Source: Acidobacteriota bacterium
Lineage (GTDB): Bacteria > Acidobacteriota > Terriglobia > Terriglobales > SCQP01
DNA length: 64,000 nucleotides
Assembly (NCBI GenBank): GCA_027315185.1
Contig: DAHUYO010000002.1
Coordinates: forward strand, 23,800 to 87,799
Reading direction: 5' to 3'
Notes under the pieces: model-generated
Databases searched by the model: none
What the model was told of the DNA's origin: nothing
What the model saw: the letters and a program-made list of their open reading frames with translations, nothing else
Shown: positions 1 through 25,316 of the stretch, in pieces
How positions within the stretch are numbered: the first letter of the stretch is position 1
Layout: every line of letters starts with the position of its first letter
Made by a program: the position numbers and the translations under genes

Positions 1-305
1 CGGCGGTCGGGGGTCCGCCCGCACCCGCCGCGCCCGGCCGCCAGCCCGCAGGCCACCAGCGCCCGCTGCCCGGCCTCCCTGAGGCCGCCGTGGGCGACGA
101 GCACCGCGGCCCCTGTGCGAATGGCGTTGAAGTCCGCAGCGAGCCCCTTGGCCCTCGCCGAGTCCCCGGGCGCGCCGTGCCAGCCCATGAACGCGGCGCG
201 GTCGCGGAGGATCACCGGAACCCAGTCCGCAACCGTTCCGGGTCCGTTCACGTTGGCCGAGATGACCCAATATCTGCGCCGATTATCGCCGCGGGGCGTC
301 GCCAT
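1..305 (-). CDS. hypothetical protein, N-terminal part only (runs off left edge); fourth gene of a tight minus-strand operon
   Basis: ATG at 305 (complement) is preceded by AAGGAAA and lies 10 nt after the TGA (316-318) of the upstream gene. The frame reads MATPRGDNRRRYWVISANVNGPGTVADWVPVILRDRAAFMGWHG... and stays open to position 1. It is absent from the ORF track because it has no stop in the window. No family recognised. Confidence 0.4.
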   Translation of the reverse strand, partial: MATPRGDNRRRYWVISANVNGPGTVADWVPVILRDRAAFMGWHGAPGDSARAKGLAADFNAIRTGAAVLVAHGGLREAGQRALVACGLAAGRGGCGRTPDR

Positions 306-315
306 GGGTTTCCTT

Positions 316-1269
316 TCATCTTTGAGGACGCTGCGCTAGCCGCCTGCGCGGGGTGCGCCCCTGCCCCGCGCTCCTCCGGGCGCTGCGCGCCCGCTGCTTG
401 GGCGCCCCTTTGCCGAGCTGGCCGGAGCCGCGCGCTTCGACGACCCGCTCCGCACGCTGGATTCCAAGCGGCGTGATGCAGACGCGGGCGGACCCCTGCT
501 CGTACTCAACCATGCGCTCCCTGTGGAGCGGCTTCAGGACGTCCCGCCGGAAAACCGCCGTGCTCGCCTGGCCGACCCAATGCGCCACGTCGCATTCAGC
601 AACCCATCCGGTCCGCGAATAGAGCAGGACCAGTGCCTGGTCGCGCTGGCTCATTGCGGGGTCCAATACCCGCCTTGTCCCCCCAACACCCCAGACCAGC
701 GGGTGCTTCCGCTCAGCGAGGGCGTCCGCGAGGTCCTGGGCAGCGGCAGTGGTTACCCCGTGGAACACACGCACCAGTTCGGCCATTACCCAGCTAGCCA
801 TCCCGAGGACGAGGGTCGCGTCCATCAGGTTCGGATCGACATCGCCGCCGACGTGGCCCACACCCCTGTTGTTGCGGACGTCGTAGAGGACCGGGAGCGC
901 CCGCGGGATCAGAACGCGGAGGCTGTGGTCGCCCACGCGATTCGGACCGGCCGGCATTTGCTCGAGGGCCTGGCAGGCCGCGACTACGTTTTTGGGCTTC
1001 GTTGGCGCCTGCGGGTATTTCCCAGTTAGCGCGCCCAGGAGCACGCCATGCACGATCTCGCAGAACTTCCCACCGTTCAGCTCGGACGGCTCCCATTTAT
1101 GGTTCGCGTAATTCGCGGTTATTTCGCGGTACGCCGCGAGGAGGGGATCGCGGAACGCGGGCGGGATTGCGCCGAGCGCGCCTGCGGGGTCCAAGCCTAG
1201 CCCCCCGCCCCGGCCATCTCTTTGACGAGTTCCGCCGCCCTCCGCAGCCCGGGGGCCGTCAGTGTCCAA
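316..1269 (-). CDS. HEPN-like (Abi_C-like) domain protein, candidate RNase/defence effector
   Basis: Long ORF with normal amino-acid composition. It contains LYDVRNNRGVGHVGGDVDPN, which fits the HEPN Rx4-6H (RN...H) signature as in Abi_C-type proteins. The real start is probably TTG at 1194, directly after the upstream stop (1197-1199), rather than 1269. Confidence 0.55.
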   Translation of the reverse strand: MDTDGPRAAEGGGTRQRDGRGGGLGLDPAGALGAIPPAFRDPLLAAYREITANYANHKWEPSELNGGKFCEIVHGVLLGALTGKYPQAPTKPKNVVAACQALEQMPAGPNRVGDHSLRVLIPRALPVLYDVRNNRGVGHVGGDVDPNLMDATLVLGMASWVMAELVRVFHGVTTAAAQDLADALAERKHPLVWGVGGTRRVLDPAMSQRDQALVLLYSRTGWVAECDVAHWVGQASTAVFRRDVLKPLHRERMVEYEQGSARVCITPLGIQRAERVVEARGSGQLGKGAPKQRARSARRSAGQGRTPRRRLAQRPQR

Positions 1270-1784
1270 CCCTTCTCCCTCGAGCCGACGAGGGCCTTGC
1301 CGGCGGCCCCGCGGTAGTTGGCGTGGTTGCCCCTGTTATGGCAGCCGAGGTGCTTGCAGAGCTTCACGGCGTCGGCCTCCGCGAACTTCGGCGCGCCCGA
1401 CCCTAAGAGGGCGCAGACGCCAGCGAGCAGGTACGTGTTGATCGTCCTCTCTTTCTCTGTCGCGCCGGCGATGCCGCCGATCACCTCGGCCGCCCCGTCG
1501 TCGACGTGGAACACCGCCGCGACCATGGCATGGTCCAGGCCGTTCATCTTCATCCAGGCGCTGACGGCTGCGTTTGGCGTGCCCGCTGGGACGGGCGCGG
1601 CCGGGGCCACCGCCGCAGGCGCCCCTGGCGGCGCCGCGCCGTGAAGGGCGCTCACTGCGGCGAGGGCGCGCGTCCTTTCATCGGCGCTGAGGGGCGCGAG
1701 CAACCGGTCGATTTCGGCGACGACGTCGCCCGGCGTCTTCGAACCGCTGGAAGCCCCTTTATTTGCCATAGACCCACCTGCCAC
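1197..1784 (-). CDS. hypothetical protein (Ala/Pro-rich linker plus C-terminal globular domain)
   Basis: ORF in operon context. The likely start is ATG at 1769 (MANKGASSGSK...), which overlaps the frame-corrected stop of the upstream gene (TAA 1759-1761). No family recognised. Confidence 0.5.
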   Translation of the reverse strand: MAGGSMANKGASSGSKTPGDVVAEIDRLLAPLSADERTRALAAVSALHGAAPPGAPAAVAPAAPVPAGTPNAAVSAWMKMNGLDHAMVAAVFHVDDGAAEVIGGIAGATEKERTINTYLLAGVCALLGSGAPKFAEADAVKLCKHLGCHNRGNHANYRGAAGKALVGSREKGWTLTAPGLRRAAELVKEMAGAGG

Positions 1785-2129
1785 CGGCCCTCTTCCTCCC
1801 CAGCGCCTTCCGCTTGACCAGGGCGAGGAGGACGCCGGACAACGTCGTTACCGGGTACATATACCCCTTTTCCTCAGGCACTTTGGAGATTTCACCGAGA
1901 CCCGGGGCATGTCGAAGAAGCCGGACTCCCTGAGGTCCGCAACCAGCTCCGAGGCGGTGGGGCGCCTCTTGCCAGCGCCCCTGCCTGGGCGCTGGCCGTC
2001 TGGTGCCGGAGCGGGCCGCCGCGGGCTACCGCCGTCGTTGACCGCAGCGAGGAACGATGACACCTCCGCCACGGTCCCCTCGACGGTCACCAGGGCACCG
2101 CCTTTTAGCTTTAATGTAGCCTTCGCCAC
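1759..2129 (-). CDS. small hypothetical protein with wHTH-like C-terminus; apparent frameshift at 1901-1907
   Basis: The track ORF 1848-2129 ends ...LRESGFFDMPRVSVKSPKCLRKRGICTR*. After the CCCCGGG run (plus-strand cccgggg, 1901-1907), the -1 frame reads GLGEISKVPEEKGYMYPVTTLSGVLLALVKRKALGRKRAGGRWVYGK*. This looks like a winged-helix segment. It ends at 1759-1761, overlapping the next gene's ATG (1769) in the usual operon style. Confidence 0.45.
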
Positions 2130-2270
2130 TGCGTTAAATCACAAGTCTATCAGATACGGGGGTGTTATTGCGTCGGCTTGCCGCGCGCGCCGTGAGTGGC
2201 CATCCGGGGGCTCGGGCGCCCGGGGCAGGGGCGAATGGTATAGTTCCTAGCGGCGAAGGGGCGGCGAGGG

Positions 2271-2969
2271 ATGCGCATCCGCGACATGAGCTGGCGGGAT
2301 GTCGAGGCCTACCTGGCGCGGGACGACCGCGCGGTGCTGCCCCTCGGCAGCACCGAACAGCATGCCGGGCTAAGCCTGGCGACGGATTGGATATTGGCGG
2401 AGCGGGTAGCCGAGCAAGCGGCGGAGCCGCTGGGCGTCGCCGTCTTCCCCGCCCTGCCCTACGGCGTGACGCCCTATTTCACCGCCTTTCCGGGAACCAT
2501 CACGCTAACCGCCGAGACCTATCTCCGCGTGATCGCCGAGGTGGTCGCGGGATTGGCGCAGCAGGGATTCCGGCGGATTCTGCTGGTCAACGGCCACGGC
2601 GGCAACTCGTTCGCCGCGGAGGCGGCGGCGGAAGCGGGACGGCGGGCCGGGGCCCAGGTGAAGCTGCACAACTGGTGGAACGCGCCGCGGACCTGGGCGC
2701 AGGTGATGGCCACCGATCCGGTCGCCGGCCATGCGTCCTGGATGGAAAACTTCCCCTGGACGCGGCTGCCCGGCGCTACGCCGCCGGAAGCGCAAAAGCC
2801 GCCATTGGACATGGCGGCGACGCGGGCGCTGGAACCGCGGCAGGTGCGGGAACGAATCGGCGACGGCAACCTGGGCGGGAAATACCAGCGCGGCGATGCG
2901 GAGATGGAGGCGATTTGGCAGGCGGGCGTCGCGGAAACGCGGCGGGCGATTGCCGAAGATTGGGGCTAG
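2271..2969 (+). CDS. creatininase family protein (creatinine amidohydrolase/MftE-like)
   Basis: Family hallmarks are present: LPLGSTEQHAGLSLATD, PYGVTPYF and LLVNGHGGN. Length 232 aa. Confidence 0.85.
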   Translation: MRIRDMSWRDVEAYLARDDRAVLPLGSTEQHAGLSLATDWILAERVAEQAAEPLGVAVFPALPYGVTPYFTAFPGTITLTAETYLRVIAEVVAGLAQQGFRRILLVNGHGGNSFAAEAAAEAGRRAGAQVKLHNWWNAPRTWAQVMATDPVAGHASWMENFPWTRLPGATPPEAQKPPLDMAATRALEPRQVRERIGDGNLGGKYQRGDAEMEAIWQAGVAETRRAIAEDWG

Positions 2970-3105
2970 GGCCCAGGTTTGGGCGGCGAGGGCCGAGGGT
3001 CCGGCGGGCTGGCGCCGGCCCCAGCGCGGCGGGACCGAGCTCGCAAGCCCCGGTTCGGCGCCATGCCAAGCGCGGCTGGGTGGGGCGGATGTCCGGATTG
3101 GAACT

Positions 3106-3951
3106 ATGCCAACGGCAATCGTGGTGCATGGCGGCTGCGGGCGGGTCGAGGAAAACTCGCTGGCGGAGCGGCGCGCGGGCGTGCGGCAGGCGGCGGAGCG
3201 AGGCTGGGAGATTCTGCGCGCGGGCGGCAGCGCGCTGGACGCGGCGGAGGCGGCGGTGGTGGTGCTGGAGGATCTGCCGCTGTTCAACGCCGGGCGCGGC
3301 TCGGCGCTGACCCGCGACGGACGGATCGAGATGGACGCGGCGATCATGGACGGCGCCACGCGACGGGCGGGGGCGGTGGCCTGCGTCAGCCGCGTCGCGA
3401 ACCCCATCCGATTGGCGCGGCGGGTGATGGAGGCCAGCCCGCACGTGATGCTGTGCGCCGCCGGCGCGGAGGAGTTCGCCGCGCAGCAGGGAATTCCCGC
3501 CTGCGATTGGCGGGACCTGGTCGTCGCGGAGCGGCGGAGCCAGTGGGAACGGGAGCATGGCACGGTCGGCGCGGTGGCGCTGGACGCAGGCGGCGGGTTG
3601 GCGGCGGCGACCTCCACCGGCGGCACCAGCGGCAAGCTGCCGGGGCGCATCGGCGACACGCCGATTATCGGCGCCGGCACCTACGCCGACCGGGCGACGG
3701 CGGTGTCCTGCACTGGAACGGGGGAATCCATTCTGCGCATGACGCTGGCCAGATTGGCGGCGCTCTGGCGGGAGCGGCTGGGCGATGCGCAGGCGGCGGC
3801 GGAACGGGCGCTGGCGGAATTGGCGGCGGAGGTGGGCGGCGAAGCGGGGCTGATTCTCGTGGATCGCGATGGACGGCTCGCCATCGCCCACAACACGCCG
3901 CATATGCCGGTCTGCGCCATCCATGCGGGCGGCATCGAGGTGCGCAGCTAG
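3106..3951 (+). CDS. isoaspartyl peptidase / L-asparaginase (Ntn hydrolase, IaaA family)
   Basis: MPTAIVVHGG..., LFNAGRGS, and HGTVGAVALD (autoproteolytic Thr context) followed by TSTGG. I chose the internal ATG at 3106 because the 5' extension of the track ORF (from 2731) is Arg-rich junk overlapping the previous gene. Confidence 0.9.
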   Translation: MPTAIVVHGGCGRVEENSLAERRAGVRQAAERGWEILRAGGSALDAAEAAVVVLEDLPLFNAGRGSALTRDGRIEMDAAIMDGATRRAGAVACVSRVANPIRLARRVMEASPHVMLCAAGAEEFAAQQGIPACDWRDLVVAERRSQWEREHGTVGAVALDAGGGLAAATSTGGTSGKLPGRIGDTPIIGAGTYADRATAVSCTGTGESILRMTLARLAALWRERLGDAQAAAERALAELAAEVGGEAGLILVDRDGRLAIAHNTPHMPVCAIHAGGIEVRS

Positions 3952-3969
3952 ATAGGAGTTAGACACGCG

Positions 3970-5568
3970 GTGGACGGCGGCGGCGCACACAAAGCGGCGA
4001 GCGGCAGGGCGAAGCGGGCGCGGGATTCGCTGAGCGGAACGTCGGTCAACCGCGGGCCGTCCACGAAGCTGGCGGCGGGCGGCGCGCATCCGCGGCGGGC
4101 ATTCCTGGTCTTGTTTTTTGTCGAGATCTGGGAGCGCTTCGGCTACTACGGCATGGCCTCCATCATGGTGCTGTACATGGTGCGGCGCCTGGGGCTGGGG
4201 GACGCGCGGGCGGACGCCATCTGGGGGGCGTTTTCGGCCCTGGTCTACGCCATGCCGATGATCGGCGGCTACGTCGGCGACCGCGTGCTGGGGGCGCGGC
4301 GCACGCTGGTGCTAGGAGCGGCGGCGCTGGGGCTGGGGTATGTGTTTTTGGCGGTCCCGCTGCAGGCGGCGTTTTTTCCGGCCATGGGCTTGATCGCCAT
4401 GGGCGGCGGATTGTTCAAGGTCAATCCCAACAACCTCGTCTCCCGCCTGTATGAAGGCGACCACTCCAAGCTGGATATTCTTTTCACAATTTATTACATG
4501 TCGCTCAACATCGGCTCCTTTGTCTCCATCCTGCTGACGCCGTGGATCAGCAACCATCCGCGGTGGGTGGTGACGGTCGCCGGGCTGCGCTTCGATAGCT
4601 GGCACCTGGCATTCGGACTCAGCGCCCTGGGGCTGACGGCGGGGCTGACCAGCTACGCGATCTGGCGGCGATATTTGGCGCCGTATGGCACGGCGCCGGA
4701 CTTCGCGCCGCTGCGTTGGGGCCGGCTGGGGATCGTTCTGCTGGCGTCGGCGGCCGGCGTGGGCGCGCTGGCGGAGATCGTCCGCCACCAAGCGGCGGCG
4801 GTGACGGTGGTGGGCATCTTCCTTTTGCTGATTGTCGTGATCTTCGCGCGTCTGCTGGCGACCGACGATGCCCGCGCCCGGGGGCGGGTGTGGGCCTGCA
4901 TCGCCTTCACCGTCATGTCGGTGGTCTGGGCGGTGTACAACCAGCAGATTTACACCTCGCTGACGCTGTTCGCGCTGCGCAACGTGCGGCATCAGCTGCT
5001 CGGCGTGCACGTTTCCGCGGCGCAGTTTCAGGACCTGAACCAGTTTTGGCTGGTGTTGCTGGCCCTGCCGCTGGCCTGGTTCTACCAGCGCATGGCGCGG
5101 ACGCCGCGGGGCGATTTTTCCATGGCGGCGAAATATGCCGCGGGCTTGTATTTGCTAGCTCTCGCGTTCCTGCTGTACGCCGGCGGCGGATGGGCGGCGC
5201 GGGGCGGGATGGTTTCGCCGTGGTGGCTGGTGGCCGGGTATGGGGCGCAGTCGCTGGGCGAACTGCTGATCAGCGCGCTGGGGTTTTCCATGGTGGCGCA
5301 ACTGGCGCCGGAGCGGGCGCGGGGCGTCACCATGGGCGCATGGTTTTTGGGCATGGGCGCGGGCATGTACGCGGGCGGCATGGTGGCGGGCATGGCTAGC
5401 GTGCCCGCGGGCCTAACGCGGGCGGCGGAAACGCTGCCGTTTTATATGCACGTGTTCCTGTGGCTGGCCGCCGGCGCGCTGGTCTGCGCCCTGGCGGCGA
5501 CGGCGATCACGCCGCTGCTGAATCGCTATACCGCCGCGCCGGTCGCGGCCAAACCCGAACCGGCGTAG
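3970..5568 (+). CDS. POT/PTR2 family proton-dependent oligopeptide transporter
   Basis: Contains the PTR2 signature FFVEIWERFGYYGM and is multi-pass hydrophobic throughout. The GTG start at 3970 is uncertain. Confidence 0.9.
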   Translation: MDGGGAHKAASGRAKRARDSLSGTSVNRGPSTKLAAGGAHPRRAFLVLFFVEIWERFGYYGMASIMVLYMVRRLGLGDARADAIWGAFSALVYAMPMIGGYVGDRVLGARRTLVLGAAALGLGYVFLAVPLQAAFFPAMGLIAMGGGLFKVNPNNLVSRLYEGDHSKLDILFTIYYMSLNIGSFVSILLTPWISNHPRWVVTVAGLRFDSWHLAFGLSALGLTAGLTSYAIWRRYLAPYGTAPDFAPLRWGRLGIVLLASAAGVGALAEIVRHQAAAVTVVGIFLLLIVVIFARLLATDDARARGRVWACIAFTVMSVVWAVYNQQIYTSLTLFALRNVRHQLLGVHVSAAQFQDLNQFWLVLLALPLAWFYQRMARTPRGDFSMAAKYAAGLYLLALAFLLYAGGGWAARGGMVSPWWLVAGYGAQSLGELLISALGFSMVAQLAPERARGVTMGAWFLGMGAGMYAGGMVAGMASVPAGLTRAAETLPFYMHVFLWLAAGALVCALAATAITPLLNRYTAAPVAAKPEPA

Positions 5569-22880: not shown

Positions 22881-25316
22881 TTAGCTCTCACGCAACGCGG
22901 CGGCGGGGTCGGTGCGCGCGGCGCGGCGGGCGGGCAGCCACGCCGCCAACGCGCCCGCCGCCAGCAACGCGGCGGCAACGACGGCGATAGTTGCCGGATC
23001 TGACGGGGTGACGGCGTACAGCAGGCTGGCCACCAGCCGGCCGGCCGCCAGCGCCGCCGCCACGCCGATCACCAAGCCGACGACGACCGGCGCGATGGCC
23101 TGGCGGATGACCTCACCGGCCAAGGCGCCCGGCCGCGCGCCCAACGCGGAGCGAATGCCGATCTCCTGGGTACGGCGGCCCACCGAGTACGCGACCACGC
23201 CATAGACGCCGAGGCCGGCGAGCAACAGCGCCGCCGCCGCGAACAACGCCAACAGGCTGGCTTCAAATCGCTGCGGGCCCAGCGCCGCCGCGGCCACGTG
23301 ATCCATGGTCTTGAAGTTCTGCACCGGCACGGTGGGATCCACCTTCCAAACGGCGAGCTGGATCTCCGGCGCTAAGGTGGCCGGCGCCAGGCGGGAGCGA
23401 ACCGCCACCACGGTTTCCACCCAAGGAAACGTCCAGTAGGGCTGGTAGACGACGTTCGCTGGGCGCTCGGTCGGCCGCTCCAGCACATCGGCGGCGATGC
23501 CGACGACGCGCAACTGGGCGCTGCCGTCACTGAATGTTTTCCCGATGGGAGATTGCCCAGGCCATATCGCGCGGGCCATATGACGGGAAATCACCGCCTC
23601 ATTGGGCGCGGCCTGCTGATCGGCGGCGGCGAAGCCGCGGCCGCGGAGAATGTGGATGCCCAGCGTAGAGAATACGCCGGGGCTGACGAAACGCACCTGC
23701 GCCAGAGGTTGTTGTTCGGCGGGCAGATGCCGACCGGGGATTTGGATGCCGTCGAACCAGGCGTCGCCGGCCAAGGGCAGGGAGGATATCAGCGCCGCGT
23801 GGGCCACGCCGGGCACGGCGCGCAAATTGGCCAAGACTTGGCCATCGAAACGGAGAATCGCCGCGTTCTTCTGGTAATAGCTCGAGCCGGGCAACACCAA
23901 CTGCACGGTCAAGACATGCCTGATGCGGATGCCGGATGGCCGGCCGGTCAAGGTCCACAAGCTGCGCAGAAACAGCCCGGCGGCGATAAGCAGCACGGCG
24001 CCCAGCGCCACCTCGGCGGCCACCAACGCCTCCCGCCAGCGCCGCGCGGGACGGCTTTCGGAGAGCGACCGGCCGCCACTGGCCAGCGCCAGTTGCGGAT
24101 CAGCGCGGCCGGCGCGCCAGGCAGGAGCCACGCCGAAGAGAATGGCGCTGACCATGGTGACGGCGGCGGCGAAACCGGCGACGCGCCAATCCCAAGGCAC
24201 GCCATGCGCCGGCGTCCAACCGGCGGGGATCCAGGCCAGCAAAGCCGCCTCACCCCACCAGGCAAGCAAAAGGCCAGCCGCGCCGCCGGCCAGCGCCAGC
24301 AGGAAGCTTTCTGCAAACTGGGAGCGCATCAAGCCCGCCCGGCCGGCGCCGAGCGCGGCGCGTACGCCCATTTCCCGTGTTCGCCCGGTGGCCCGAGCCA
24401 AGGCCAGATTCGCCAAATTGACGCAGCCGATCAGCAGAACCGCCAGCACCGCCGCCAGCAAAAGCCACAAGCCCTGCCGCGCCGAACCCGCCAGCGCCGT
24501 TTGCACCGGCGTCAGGATGGTCCAGATTTGGGCGGAAGGCGCGTAGCGGTGGGTGAGCTGGTTTTCGATGGCATCCAGCTGCGCGGTCGCCTGCGCAGCG
24601 GTCATTCCCGGGCGCAACCGCGCGATGACCTGATAGTTGTAATCGCCGGCGAGGGAATCCGCCGACGGACCGTGGTAGGCGATGCCGATGGGCGCCAGCA
24701 GGCCCGGGCGGCCGGTGATGAATCCGCCGCGGAAGGGCCAACGGAAGCCGGACGCCAAGACGCCAACGACCGTGTGCGGTTGATTGTTCAGCGTGACGAT
24801 TTTGCCAACGATCGCGGAATCGGAATGAAACCGCGCCGCCCACAAGCGATGGGTCAAGATGACCACCGGCGGACCGTTGGGCGCGTCCTCGGAGGGACGA
24901 AAGTTGCGGCCCAGTTCCAGCCGCGCGCCGAGCAGCGGCAGGAAGTTGGCCGAGACGCGGCCGGCCTTGAGCTGAGCCGGCGGCTGCCCGGCCTGAGTTA
25001 AGTCCATGCGGCCGCCCTGGGCGATGGCCATGCCGGAGAAGGCTCGCGCCCGCTGCCGCCAGGCATGGAACTGTTCGGGATTGTCGGGGATCCAGGGCTC
25101 TTGCAGTTTGGCCGCCATGGCGGCGTCTTCATGGATGACGACCAGCCGCCCTGGCTGGCGGTAGGGCAGCGGGGCGAGCAAGACGGCGTTCACCACGGTG
25201 AAAATCGCCACGCAGCCGCCGATCGCCAGCGCCAGCGTGGCGACGGAGATGAAGGTGAAGGCAGGGGCGCGGCGCAGCGCACGCGCCGCCTGCCGCAATT
25301 CATGCCGCACGGTCAT
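22881..25316 (-). CDS. ADOP family duplicated orphan permease (MacB-like)
   Basis: Same architecture as its neighbour: RALRRAPAFTFISVATLALAIGG..., C-terminus WLPARRAARTDPAAALRES. Length 811 aa. Confidence 0.9.
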   Translation of the reverse strand: MTVRHELRQAARALRRAPAFTFISVATLALAIGGCVAIFTVVNAVLLAPLPYRQPGRLVVIHEDAAMAAKLQEPWIPDNPEQFHAWRQRARAFSGMAIAQGGRMDLTQAGQPPAQLKAGRVSANFLPLLGARLELGRNFRPSEDAPNGPPVVILTHRLWAARFHSDSAIVGKIVTLNNQPHTVVGVLASGFRWPFRGGFITGRPGLLAPIGIAYHGPSADSLAGDYNYQVIARLRPGMTAAQATAQLDAIENQLTHRYAPSAQIWTILTPVQTALAGSARQGLWLLLAAVLAVLLIGCVNLANLALARATGRTREMGVRAALGAGRAGLMRSQFAESFLLALAGGAAGLLLAWWGEAALLAWIPAGWTPAHGVPWDWRVAGFAAAVTMVSAILFGVAPAWRAGRADPQLALASGGRSLSESRPARRWREALVAAEVALGAVLLIAAGLFLRSLWTLTGRPSGIRIRHVLTVQLVLPGSSYYQKNAAILRFDGQVLANLRAVPGVAHAALISSLPLAGDAWFDGIQIPGRHLPAEQQPLAQVRFVSPGVFSTLGIHILRGRGFAAADQQAAPNEAVISRHMARAIWPGQSPIGKTFSDGSAQLRVVGIAADVLERPTERPANVVYQPYWTFPWVETVVAVRSRLAPATLAPEIQLAVWKVDPTVPVQNFKTMDHVAAAALGPQRFEASLLALFAAAALLLAGLGVYGVVAYSVGRRTQEIGIRSALGARPGALAGEVIRQAIAPVVVGLVIGVAAALAAGRLVASLLYAVTPSDPATIAVVAAALLAAGALAAWLPARRAARTDPAAALRES

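Follow-up and report, generated by a model that had tools for sequence, protein, structure and literature searches.

A strain-variable block in an Acidobacteriota genome contains one copy of a widespread unannotated gene cassette, a plausible toxin or defence module, beside a putative modification-dependent nuclease

Four tightly packed genes at one end of a stretch of acidobacterial DNA raise two questions: do they encode a defence system, and which of the four belong to it? A sequence-only reading of the window (the whole 64,000-nucleotide stretch that we analysed, positions 23,800 to 87,799 of contig DAHUYO010000002.1) had proposed that they form an uncharacterised defence or abortive-infection operon with a HEPN-type RNase as its effector. 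We number the genes g1 to g4 in the direction of transcription. The features that the argument needs are as follows.

2130 to 2231, strand not assigned: island-specific upstream region, presumed to contain the promoter of g1 to g4; about 40 nt upstream of the creatininase ATG (2271), homology to sister strains without the block begins again
1759 to 2129, minus strand: g1, small adaptor-type protein, 123 aa if intact; the open reading frame as it stands is 1848 to 2129 (93 aa)
1900 to 1902, minus strand: frameshift site in g1; in the alignment, the G-run of the coding strand reads GGG in the window, against GGGG in the sister strain
1197 to 1769, minus strand: g2, conserved 190-aa partner of g3, upstream of g3 in most of 80 loci
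316 to 1194, minus strand: g3, putative effector (P0001), 292 aa, with an N-domain (residues 1-160), a winged helix (165-259) and a tail (260-292)
853 to 879, minus strand: invariant motif V-R107-N-N-R110-G-V-G-H114 of g3, read from the sequence and continuing as V-G-G-D-V-D-P-N to about 829
418 to 702, minus strand: C-terminal winged-helix domain of g3 (residues 165-259), from AF2 secondary structure and Foldseek
1 to 305, minus strand: first 101 of the 326 codons of g4, encoding its N-terminal putative reader domain; the predicted nuclease domain lies beyond the window, and the full gene is at 1964 to 2944 of Logan contig L001

The genes are as closely spaced as had been described. The stop codon of g2 (1197-1199) is 2 nt from the TTG start of g3 (1194), and a 10-nt spacer between the stop of g3 (316-318) and the ATG of g4 (305) contains a ribosome-binding site (AAGGA, 311-315). 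The 11-nt overlap of g1 (stop at 1759-1761) with the ATG of g2 (1769) exists only if the end of g1 is read in the -1 frame. A promoter scan of the upstream region found no sigma-70 consensus.

Together the four genes make up a block of about 3 kb at the window edge, with its right edge near 2232, that varies between strains. Sister strains without the block have a different gene in the same slot between RNR and creatininase, and two diverged strains (about 85% nucleotide identity between them) have all four genes, which were gained or lost as a single block. This comparison supports the view that the block is accessory and strain-variable. In the comparison with the sister strain, dN/dS is 0.3-0.4. 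The GC content of the block (0.65-0.70) is barely different from that of the flanks. A retron- or CRISPR-like reading was rejected: Rfam and repeat scans of positions 1-4000 were empty.

The genes also proved to be unannotated, as the sequence-only reading had supposed: they match nothing in Pfam, NCBIfam, PADLOC or PHROG. The closest PADLOC-DB v2 scores were noise (PDC-M07B for g1, E = 0.028; JetB for g4, E = 0.0073), and PDB sequence and profile searches with g1 to g4 and with the 555-aa alternative gene gave no meaningful match. In other genomes the four genes do not stay together. We examined 80 loci, in genomes from many phyla, that carry g3 homologues. The g2 family was directly upstream of g3 in 52 of these by tblastn and in 58 by HMM, a g1-like protein was present in 3, and none had a g4-family gene closer than 6 kb to g3 by either method. 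No conserved gene follows g3. The conserved core is g3 with a translationally coupled small upstream partner and not a four-gene operon. The minus strand from 316 to 2129 holds a single copy of this cassette, which is widespread and unannotated.

What, then, is g4? As had been described, the gene opens with RYWVISANVNG...AFMGW and runs off the window; the catalytic part, outside the window, was read from contig L001, where the full protein has 326 aa. Among 76 diverse relatives, E207, D241, E252 and K254 are invariant, which matches the E...D...(D/E)xK pattern, and in the IGQLLDY segment that follows the motif G267, D271 and Y272 are invariant as well. Some relatives are fused to SAD_SRA (4), EVE (1) or Pua-like (1) domains, or to ScoMcrA_N and SRA_ScoMcrA. 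From these family features we take g4 to be a PD-(D/E)xK nuclease with a putative reader domain at its N-terminus, and probably a type IV (modification-dependent) restriction enzyme. Over 209 aa, the C-terminal domain of g4 is 35% identical to its homologue in P0124, and P0124 has the ScoMcrA_N and SRA_ScoMcrA domains of the ScoMcrA/SRA type IV enzymes; in contrast, the N-domain of g4 encoded at 1-305 matched no reader model in the libraries searched, Pfam among them. ScoMcrA itself has an HNH nuclease domain, unlike the PD-(D/E)xK domain predicted for g4.

One could imagine that all four genes are a single system in which g1 to g3 sense or regulate and g4 cuts DNA. Their common direction, the short g3-g4 spacer with its ribosome-binding site, their presence together in two diverged strains and their gain or loss as one block would all fit. 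Nevertheless, this is the least probable of the explanations that we considered: besides the lack of g4 near g3 in the 80 other genomes, the g4 family (2,081 representatives by its family profile) is far wider than this pairing, and its members elsewhere adjoin a RAMA-domain protein or a Ser/Thr kinase. We infer from these family features that g4 is a separate gene, co-transcribed with the cassette and travelling with it in this lineage.

Within the cassette, g3 is coupled to its partner: across phyla, g2 and g3 abut or overlap by 1-4 nt. Where the g2 family is missing, its place before g3 is taken by other small proteins with N- or C-terminal modules in common with g2 (hhalign probability 83-98%), and many of these alternative partners have a common wHTH-like C-terminal domain. 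One or two small modular partners, translationally coupled to g3, always stand upstream of it; here they are g2 and a frameshifted g1. Furthermore, the nearest relative of a g3 has the same type of partner in 70% of cases, as compared to 42% after shuffling (maximum 60%), so partner type co-varies with g3 clade.

The g2 protein has the length of 190 aa and the Ala/Pro linker (residues 44-68) that had been attributed to it. The linker joins an N-terminal helical motif (LxPLxxxERxRxxxAxxxLhG) to a C-terminal domain of about 120 aa with the pattern W72...Y113...C138...N148-H149...GSKxxGWxLTxPG. All members of the family (a 44-sequence alignment and 79 further homologues) are "hypothetical" and have no Pfam domain. 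A zinc site formed by C138, C143 and H149 was rejected because C143 is not conserved in the alignment.

The g1 protein was described as small with a wHTH-like C-terminus, and this is true only of its intact form. Its parts are an N-terminal module (MAKATLKLKGGxxVTVEGT), a linker rich in Pro, Gly and Arg, and the wHTH-like C-terminus, which the window encodes only in the -1 frame: the loss of 1 nt near 1900-1902 interrupts the gene and leaves the 93-aa frame. The sequence-only reading had read across this site. The deletion is also present in an independent Logan assembly (contig L001). In the sister strain (L083, 137-508), one extra base in the G-run gives an intact 123-aa orthologue, and L005 encodes a full-length homologue with 52% identity. 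The part of g1 after the frameshift, read in the original frame, has a dN/dS of 0.19.

The putative effector, g3, belongs to a large family. More than 2,500 homologues (90%-identity clusters), 50-60% identical and all "hypothetical," are found in Alphaproteobacteria, Acidobacteriota, Patescibacteria, Planctomycetota, Cyanobacteria, Bacteroidota, Streptomyces and Chlamydiae, and an alignment of 30 sequences from many phyla has 57 invariant columns. Searches with g3 against Pfam (E <= 1), NCBIfam, PADLOC, PHROG and PDB profiles gave no match. The N-domain is predicted to be all-alpha, with a confident AF2 model (pLDDT 88, pTM 0.86); the tail is basic, disordered and specific to this lineage.

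The sequence VRNNRGVGH, which had suggested a HEPN protein, is indeed present in g3. It lies in a loop (R-N-N-R-G-V-G-H-x-G-G-D) between helix 89-105 and helix 121-145, immediately before the latter, and 100 homologues all have R107, R110, G111, G113 and H114. We estimate that a protein with the size and composition of g3 would contain about two Rx4-6H strings by chance; by this estimate, the non-random part of the motif is the invariance of those five residues. The arrangement R107-x6-H114 fits the HEPN motif, Rx4-6H before the last core helix, with the caveats that Rx6H is the outer limit of that motif and that the loop in which the residues lie is rich in Gly, has a low pLDDT and is not part of the helix.

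HEPN domains dominate the top PDB matches of the N-domain, but none of the matches is significant (every Foldseek E > 0.1). The best is sacsin (3o10, probability 0.85, TM 0.44/0.52, E = 0.56), and the others include AbiV (9bj5-7, E about 1-4, probability 0.13-0.30), 2hsb, 1ufb and the C-domain of the nucleotidyltransferase ANT(4'). HEPN family profiles (Abi_C, HepT, Swt1/Abi2, AbiU2, AbiV and others) did not match g3. When 30 family members were compared to Pfam at E <= 10, no HEPN or Abi model matched and only spurious UBM hits appeared, and hhalign of the N-domain against a genuine HepT-like sequence (L023), a comparison of low power, gave no signal. The fold evidence for HEPN is weak, and we regard the N-domain as possibly HEPN-like.

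The same loop could be read differently. The N-domain might be an enzyme that binds or transfers nucleotides, similar to Fic or to the nucleotide-binding HEPN domain of kanamycin nucleotidyltransferase, that modifies a protein or nucleic acid and uses G-V-G-H-V-G-G-D to bind phosphate. The loop is Gly-rich, invariant and followed by the N-terminus of a helix; ANT(4') is among the matches of the N-domain; and the top Foldseek matches of full-length g3 are Fic proteins that have a winged helix at the C-terminus (4rgl, E = 0.024; 7cb8, E = 0.071), whose build of helical domain, conserved loop and winged helix is similar. However, these structures superpose poorly on g3 (rmsd 17-22 Å, TM 0.16-0.21), the matches vanish for the N-domain alone, there is no Fic or Doc match in Pfam, and the Fic motif HxFx(D/E)GNGRxxR is missing from the g3 alignment. 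We rejected g3 as a Fic/Doc protein on account of the missing motif and the lost matches, and we consider a nucleotide-handling enzyme of any of these kinds to be quite improbable.

The sequence-only reading had noted that compact operons with HEPN effectors are frequent in anti-phage islands. We found no enrichment of known defence genes around the cassette: the 135 nearest flanking proteins from the 80 loci are mostly housekeeping, no flank family recurs more than 2-3 times, and the top Pfam families (LepA, RpoD, UvrA and others) each occur in at most 2 loci. PADLOC hits in the flanks are sparse; MTase, pAgo and dGTPase each appear at about one locus. The window is an exception in that the restriction-like g4 adjoins the cassette. 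Flanks are unrelated from locus to locus, and about 5 of 45 loci have a tRNA or tmRNA within a few hundred nt of the cassette, too few for a tRNA-linked island, which we rejected. By tblastn, the g3 family was absent from 72,556 plasmids and from 50,697 phage records, and 2.9 million viral contigs of IMG/VR yielded a single partial hit at a contig end.

This distribution, along with the C-terminal domain of g3, bears on whether g1 to g3 are instead a regulatory complex that binds nucleic acid, with the g3 N-domain sensing a ligand through its Gly-rich loop and with g1 and g2 as co-regulators. The winged helix is confidently predicted and matches those of MarR, HxlR and AspA (Foldseek probability 0.95-1.0 over about 80 columns), and many of the alternative partners also have wHTH-like domains. 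The very high conservation of g3, its housekeeping neighbours and its absence from phages and plasmids also count in favour of a regulator. On the other hand, no target gene or operon is conserved nearby, g3 has a patchy distribution that looks horizontally transferred, the block is strain-variable, and the invariant R/H loop and the many invariant charged residues look catalytic. We judge a regulatory role to be unlikely, if the strongest of the rival explanations.

Comparison with known conflict systems points to several partial resemblances. HEPN-MNT (HepT/MntA) modules are also compact mobile operons with a small upstream partner, an all-alpha protein, an R...H motif and scattered contexts. 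However, neither g1 nor g2 is the cognate minimal nucleotidyltransferase of such a module: Pfam searches found no NTase domain in either (NTP_transf and Polbeta did not match). Also, g3 has an extra winged helix and has no HepT or HEPN match in Pfam. Proteins of the AbiJ type have a HEPN domain together with accessory domains that vary (PMC3710099). The putative HEPN domain of g3 would be N-terminal and its accessory winged helix C-terminal. Abi_C gave no hit; and the lactococcal Abi systems differ in that the g3 family is absent from the plasmids and phage records searched. In the type IX retron Retron-Kva2, a winged-helix protein wraps around its partner, a divergent HEPN nuclease, and keeps it inactive (bioRxiv 10.64898/2026.07.14.738597). 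The pairing of g3 with small wHTH-bearing partners may parallel this as an analogy of parts, although the cassette has no reverse transcriptase or ncRNA, the flanks of the other loci have no RT either, and the winged helix of g3 is fused to its helical domain.

Our preferred explanation, to which we assign a probability of roughly 40%, is that g1 to g3 are a conflict module similar to toxin-antitoxin or abortive-infection systems. The cassette has the generic traits of a type II-like toxin-antitoxin module: two genes in an operon, a small upstream partner coupled to a putative effector, mobility and variable contexts. We counted in its favour the coupling and synteny of g2 and g3, the mobility, the dN/dS, the invariant R/H residues, the confident N-domain model with HEPN domains as its leading matches, the g4 neighbour and the precedent of the type IX retron. 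Counted against it were the non-significant fold matches, the lack of HEPN or Abi profile hits, the position of the motif in a loop, the conservation of g3, which exceeds that of typical toxins, the lack of defence-island enrichment, the absence from plasmid and phage collections, and the partners, which resemble no known antitoxin in Pfam, in the PDB or by source names. In such a module, g3 is predicted to be the effector, most probably a HEPN-type RNase whose R107/H114 site would be completed on dimerisation; its winged helix would dock nucleic acid or a partner; and g2 (with g1) would bind g3 and hold it inactive or gate it on a trigger. The block as a whole is a plausible toxin or defence module.

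More tentatively, and with a good deal of doubt, we propose that g2 and g3, with an optional g1-like protein, are an unrecognised and widespread immune or conflict family outside of defence islands, in which interchangeable modular adaptors control a highly conserved, divergent HEPN-like domain fused to a winged helix. If the cassette is indeed a toxin or immune module, it would add a widespread family that defence screens based on islands miss; Pfam, NCBIfam and PADLOC have no model for it, and it does not lie in defence islands. The partners, in which N- and C-terminal modules are shuffled, would be well suited to work on how adaptors control an effector of the HEPN type, and the unusually high conservation of g3 between phyla may reflect a conserved target in the cell. 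Separately, g4 points to a large unannotated family of putative reader-nuclease fusions that may be a source of new modification-dependent restriction specificities.

The sequence-only reading had placed four co-directional minus-strand genes with tight junctions at window 1-2129 and had taken them for one operon, a candidate defense or abortive-infection module. The genes and their coordinates are as proposed, except that g1 is broken by a frameshift:

2129 to 1759, minus strand: g1, 123 amino acids if intact; stop codon at 1759-1761, with an 11-nt overlap with the ATG of g2 (1769)
1769 to 1197, minus strand: g2, 190 amino acids; ends 2 nt before the TTG start of g3 (1194)
1194 to 316, minus strand: g3, 292 amino acids; followed by a 10-nt spacer with AAGGA and then the ATG of g4 at 305
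853-879, minus strand: the stretch of g3 that encodes VRNNRGVGH
305 to beyond position 1, minus strand: g4, 326 amino acids in full; runs past the window edge

Both the gene call (P0001) and an alignment of homologs at their N-termini back the TTG start of g3, and the Ala/Pro linker of g2 spans residues 44-68. An exact-sequence look-up placed g2, g3, and g4 on one 102,865-bp NCBI contig. We found the complete g4 on a Logan contig from the same organism (L001), where a convergent gene for class II ribonucleotide reductase (RNR) lies beyond it. A creatininase gene, divergent from the block, starts at 2271.

As it stands, g1 is a 93-residue reading frame that ends at 1848; the wHTH-like C-terminus, like the 1769/1759 junction, is found in the -1 frame only. 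Thus, g1 is not the intact gene that had been described: it is split here and is intact (123 amino acids) in the sister strain L083. In an alignment to L083, the G-run at window 1900-1902 is one G shorter, and the 1-nt deletion (within window 1895-1906) is also present in an independent Logan assembly. The part of g1 past the shift still looks constrained in its original frame (dN/dS = 0.19), which suggests that the lesion is recent, or possibly a read-level error. The other three genes are under purifying selection (dN/dS = 0.30-0.41 against the sister strain).

The genes are indeed uncharacterized: homologs of g3 (about 258 amino acids and 50-60% identical to it) form over 2,518 clusters at 90% identity, and every label is hypothetical. 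Scanning a single genome for each species turned up 172 relatives, spread over Alphaproteobacteria, Acidobacteriota, Patescibacteria, Planctomycetota, Cyanobacteria, Bacteroidota, Streptomyces, Chloroflexota, Chlamydiae, and further groups. We fetched 80 g3 loci, and g2 homologs lie directly upstream of g3 in 52 (by tblastn) or 58 (by HMM) of them, abutting g3 or overlapping it by 1-4 nt; almost all of the remaining loci have some other small protein (150-240 amino acids) there. A g1-family protein is present in just 3 of the 80 loci and a g4-family protein in none (by tblastn and the family HMM), so the four genes do not form a conserved operon. No gene is conserved downstream of g3 among these loci; same-strand genes there include an S9 peptidase, a serine recombinase, a HepT/MNT fusion, and ArdC. 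In a cyanobacterium (L023 6941-7843), a fused Polbeta nucleotidyltransferase and HepT-like_2 (HEPN) protein is encoded about 180 nt downstream of g3; that is, a genuine HEPN toxin-antitoxin gene adjoins the cassette.

We grouped the small proteins upstream of g3 into clusters and compared them with hhalign. The N-terminal helical motif of the g2 family is common to clusters c7, c9, and c15, and a wHTH-like C-terminal domain is common to c4, c5, c7, c9, c10, and c15; the C-terminal domain of the g2 family is its own. The N-terminal module of g1 ("MAKATLKLKxGxxVTVEGT") is seen again in loci L005, L048, and L071. Furthermore, the type of partner follows the clade of g3: nearest relatives match in 70% of cases, versus 42% when shuffled (maximum 60% across 500 shuffles). 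Together with the synteny counts, this modularity and co-variation imply that the conserved entity is g3 together with a B-type adaptor and, optionally, one of the A type. Some loci have tandem adaptors upstream of g3, either two g2-family paralogs (L031 4848-5998) or one c7 and one c15 protein (L070 2197-3329). In L071 (6772-7287), the g1-type module belongs to a protein encoded directly downstream, not upstream, of g3, so the gene order of the cassette is not fixed.

A word-indexed search gave no more than four relatives of g4; with a full HMMER profile, the number rose to 2,081 representatives (1,264 at E <= 1e-10). Across 76 diverse members, E207, D241, E252, and K254 are invariant, and the motif runs on as ...IGQLLDY; this is a PD-(D/E)xK signature. 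In the relative P0124, the g4-type C-terminal domain lies behind ScoMcrA_N and SRA_ScoMcrA domains; other members have SAD_SRA, EVE, or Pua-like domains, and another relative (P0123) adjoins a RAMA-domain gene. No model matched the N-domain of g4, which is its sole part within the window. We best read g4 as a type IV restriction-like reader-nuclease that is tied to the cassette in this lineage alone. A putative nuclease so close to g3 could be the effector of a true four-gene system, but its family is missing from the other loci and we consider this improbable; g4 would instead be an independent neighbor.

In the AlphaFold2 model of full-length g3 (pLDDT 83), the N-domain is all-alpha, residues 165-259 form a winged helix, and the tail is basic and disordered. 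The Arg-rich tail of about 33 residues (260-292; window 319-417) is present in the sister strain and shorter in a few other homologs (P0041, P0071), and most homologs lack it. By Foldseek, MarR, HxlR, and AspA match the winged helix at a probability of about 1.0. This, along with the wHTH-like domains of the partners, would suit a non-toxic regulatory complex, which we view as rather unlikely.

Modeled alone (pLDDT 88, pTM 0.86), the N-domain has predicted helices at residues 12-30, 41-57, 70-78, 89-105, 121-145, and 149-160. The invariant segment R107-N-N-R110-G-V-G-H114-V-G-G-D-V-D-P-N122 forms a low-confidence loop that precedes helix 121-145. Foldseek found no significant match for this domain in the PDB. 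HEPN domains dominate the top of the non-significant list, which is headed by sacsin 3o10 (E = 0.56, probability 0.85, TM 0.44/0.52) and includes several AbiV chains (9bj5-7), AF_0298 (2hsb), TT1696 (1ufb), and the C-domain of ANT(4'). Atypically for HEPN toxins, g3 is very highly conserved (57 invariant columns in 30 sequences) and its loop is glycine-rich. Thus, the motif noticed in the sequence proved to be invariant, but the evidence for the fold is weak, and we regard a HEPN-like fold and motif as plausible rather than demonstrated. Alternatively, g3 might use the glycine-rich loop as a nucleotide-binding or nucleotide-transferring enzyme, as the ANT(4') match could hint; this seems quite unlikely. 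The best matches to the full-length model of g3 were two Fic proteins, 4rgl and 7cb8 (E = 0.02-0.07), whose C-terminal part is likewise a winged helix. We rejected this identity because the matches vanish with the isolated N-domain, the Fic motif is absent, and the rmsd is 17-22 Å.

Enrichment near known defense genes had been proposed as a check. The genes flanking g3 in the 80 loci are mutually unrelated and mostly housekeeping, and known defense models match them only sporadically. The g3 family has no match in 72,556 plasmids or 50,697 phage records; the only viral-contig match is a partial one in IMG/VR, at a contig end (L088 5773-7754; UViG_3300014202_000164), where the genes run resolvase, c4-type adaptor, g2-type adaptor, and the beginning of g3, the same A-B-g3 order as in the window. 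Scanning the window region for Rfam families and for repeats gave no match.

The whole four-gene block is accessory in this lineage. Strains whose creatininase is at least 90% identical have, in the RNR-creatininase slot, one unrelated 555-residue gene that runs on the opposite strand. Homology to strains without the block is lost just past the terminator hairpin of RNR and, on the other side, about 40 nt short of the ATG of creatininase. This alternative cargo (L084 6301-7968, versus window <1-2231) has no Pfam or PDB match. Read by eye, its C-terminus has a PD-(D/E)xK-like string (DIDLLFVDEGARAVLIAESKW), so the slot may be a hotspot for nuclease or defense cargo.

What stands of the original interpretation is an uncharacterized, accessory cassette with an invariant motif; it is neither a conserved four-gene operon nor a resident of defense islands, and its HEPN fold is weakly supported. 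We give a probability of roughly 40% to a toxin-antitoxin or abortive-infection-like cassette, in which g3 would be an effector that targets nucleic acids, probably as a HEPN-type RNase, g2 (plus g1) its cognate gating or neutralizing partners, and g4 independent. The anatomy, conservation, and synteny of these genes, the modular build of the partners, and the variability of the block are established here, while RNase activity, neutralization by g2, and any defensive role are inferred. In two loci, g2 homologs seem to be disrupted by frameshifts next to an intact g3 (L029 5365-6001 and L030 5434-6001); both are "MFD" MAGs, and assembly error is possible. If real, these splits would argue against g2 as an essential antitoxin. 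What is new, if this is a HEPN-like conflict module, is its modular partner proteins.
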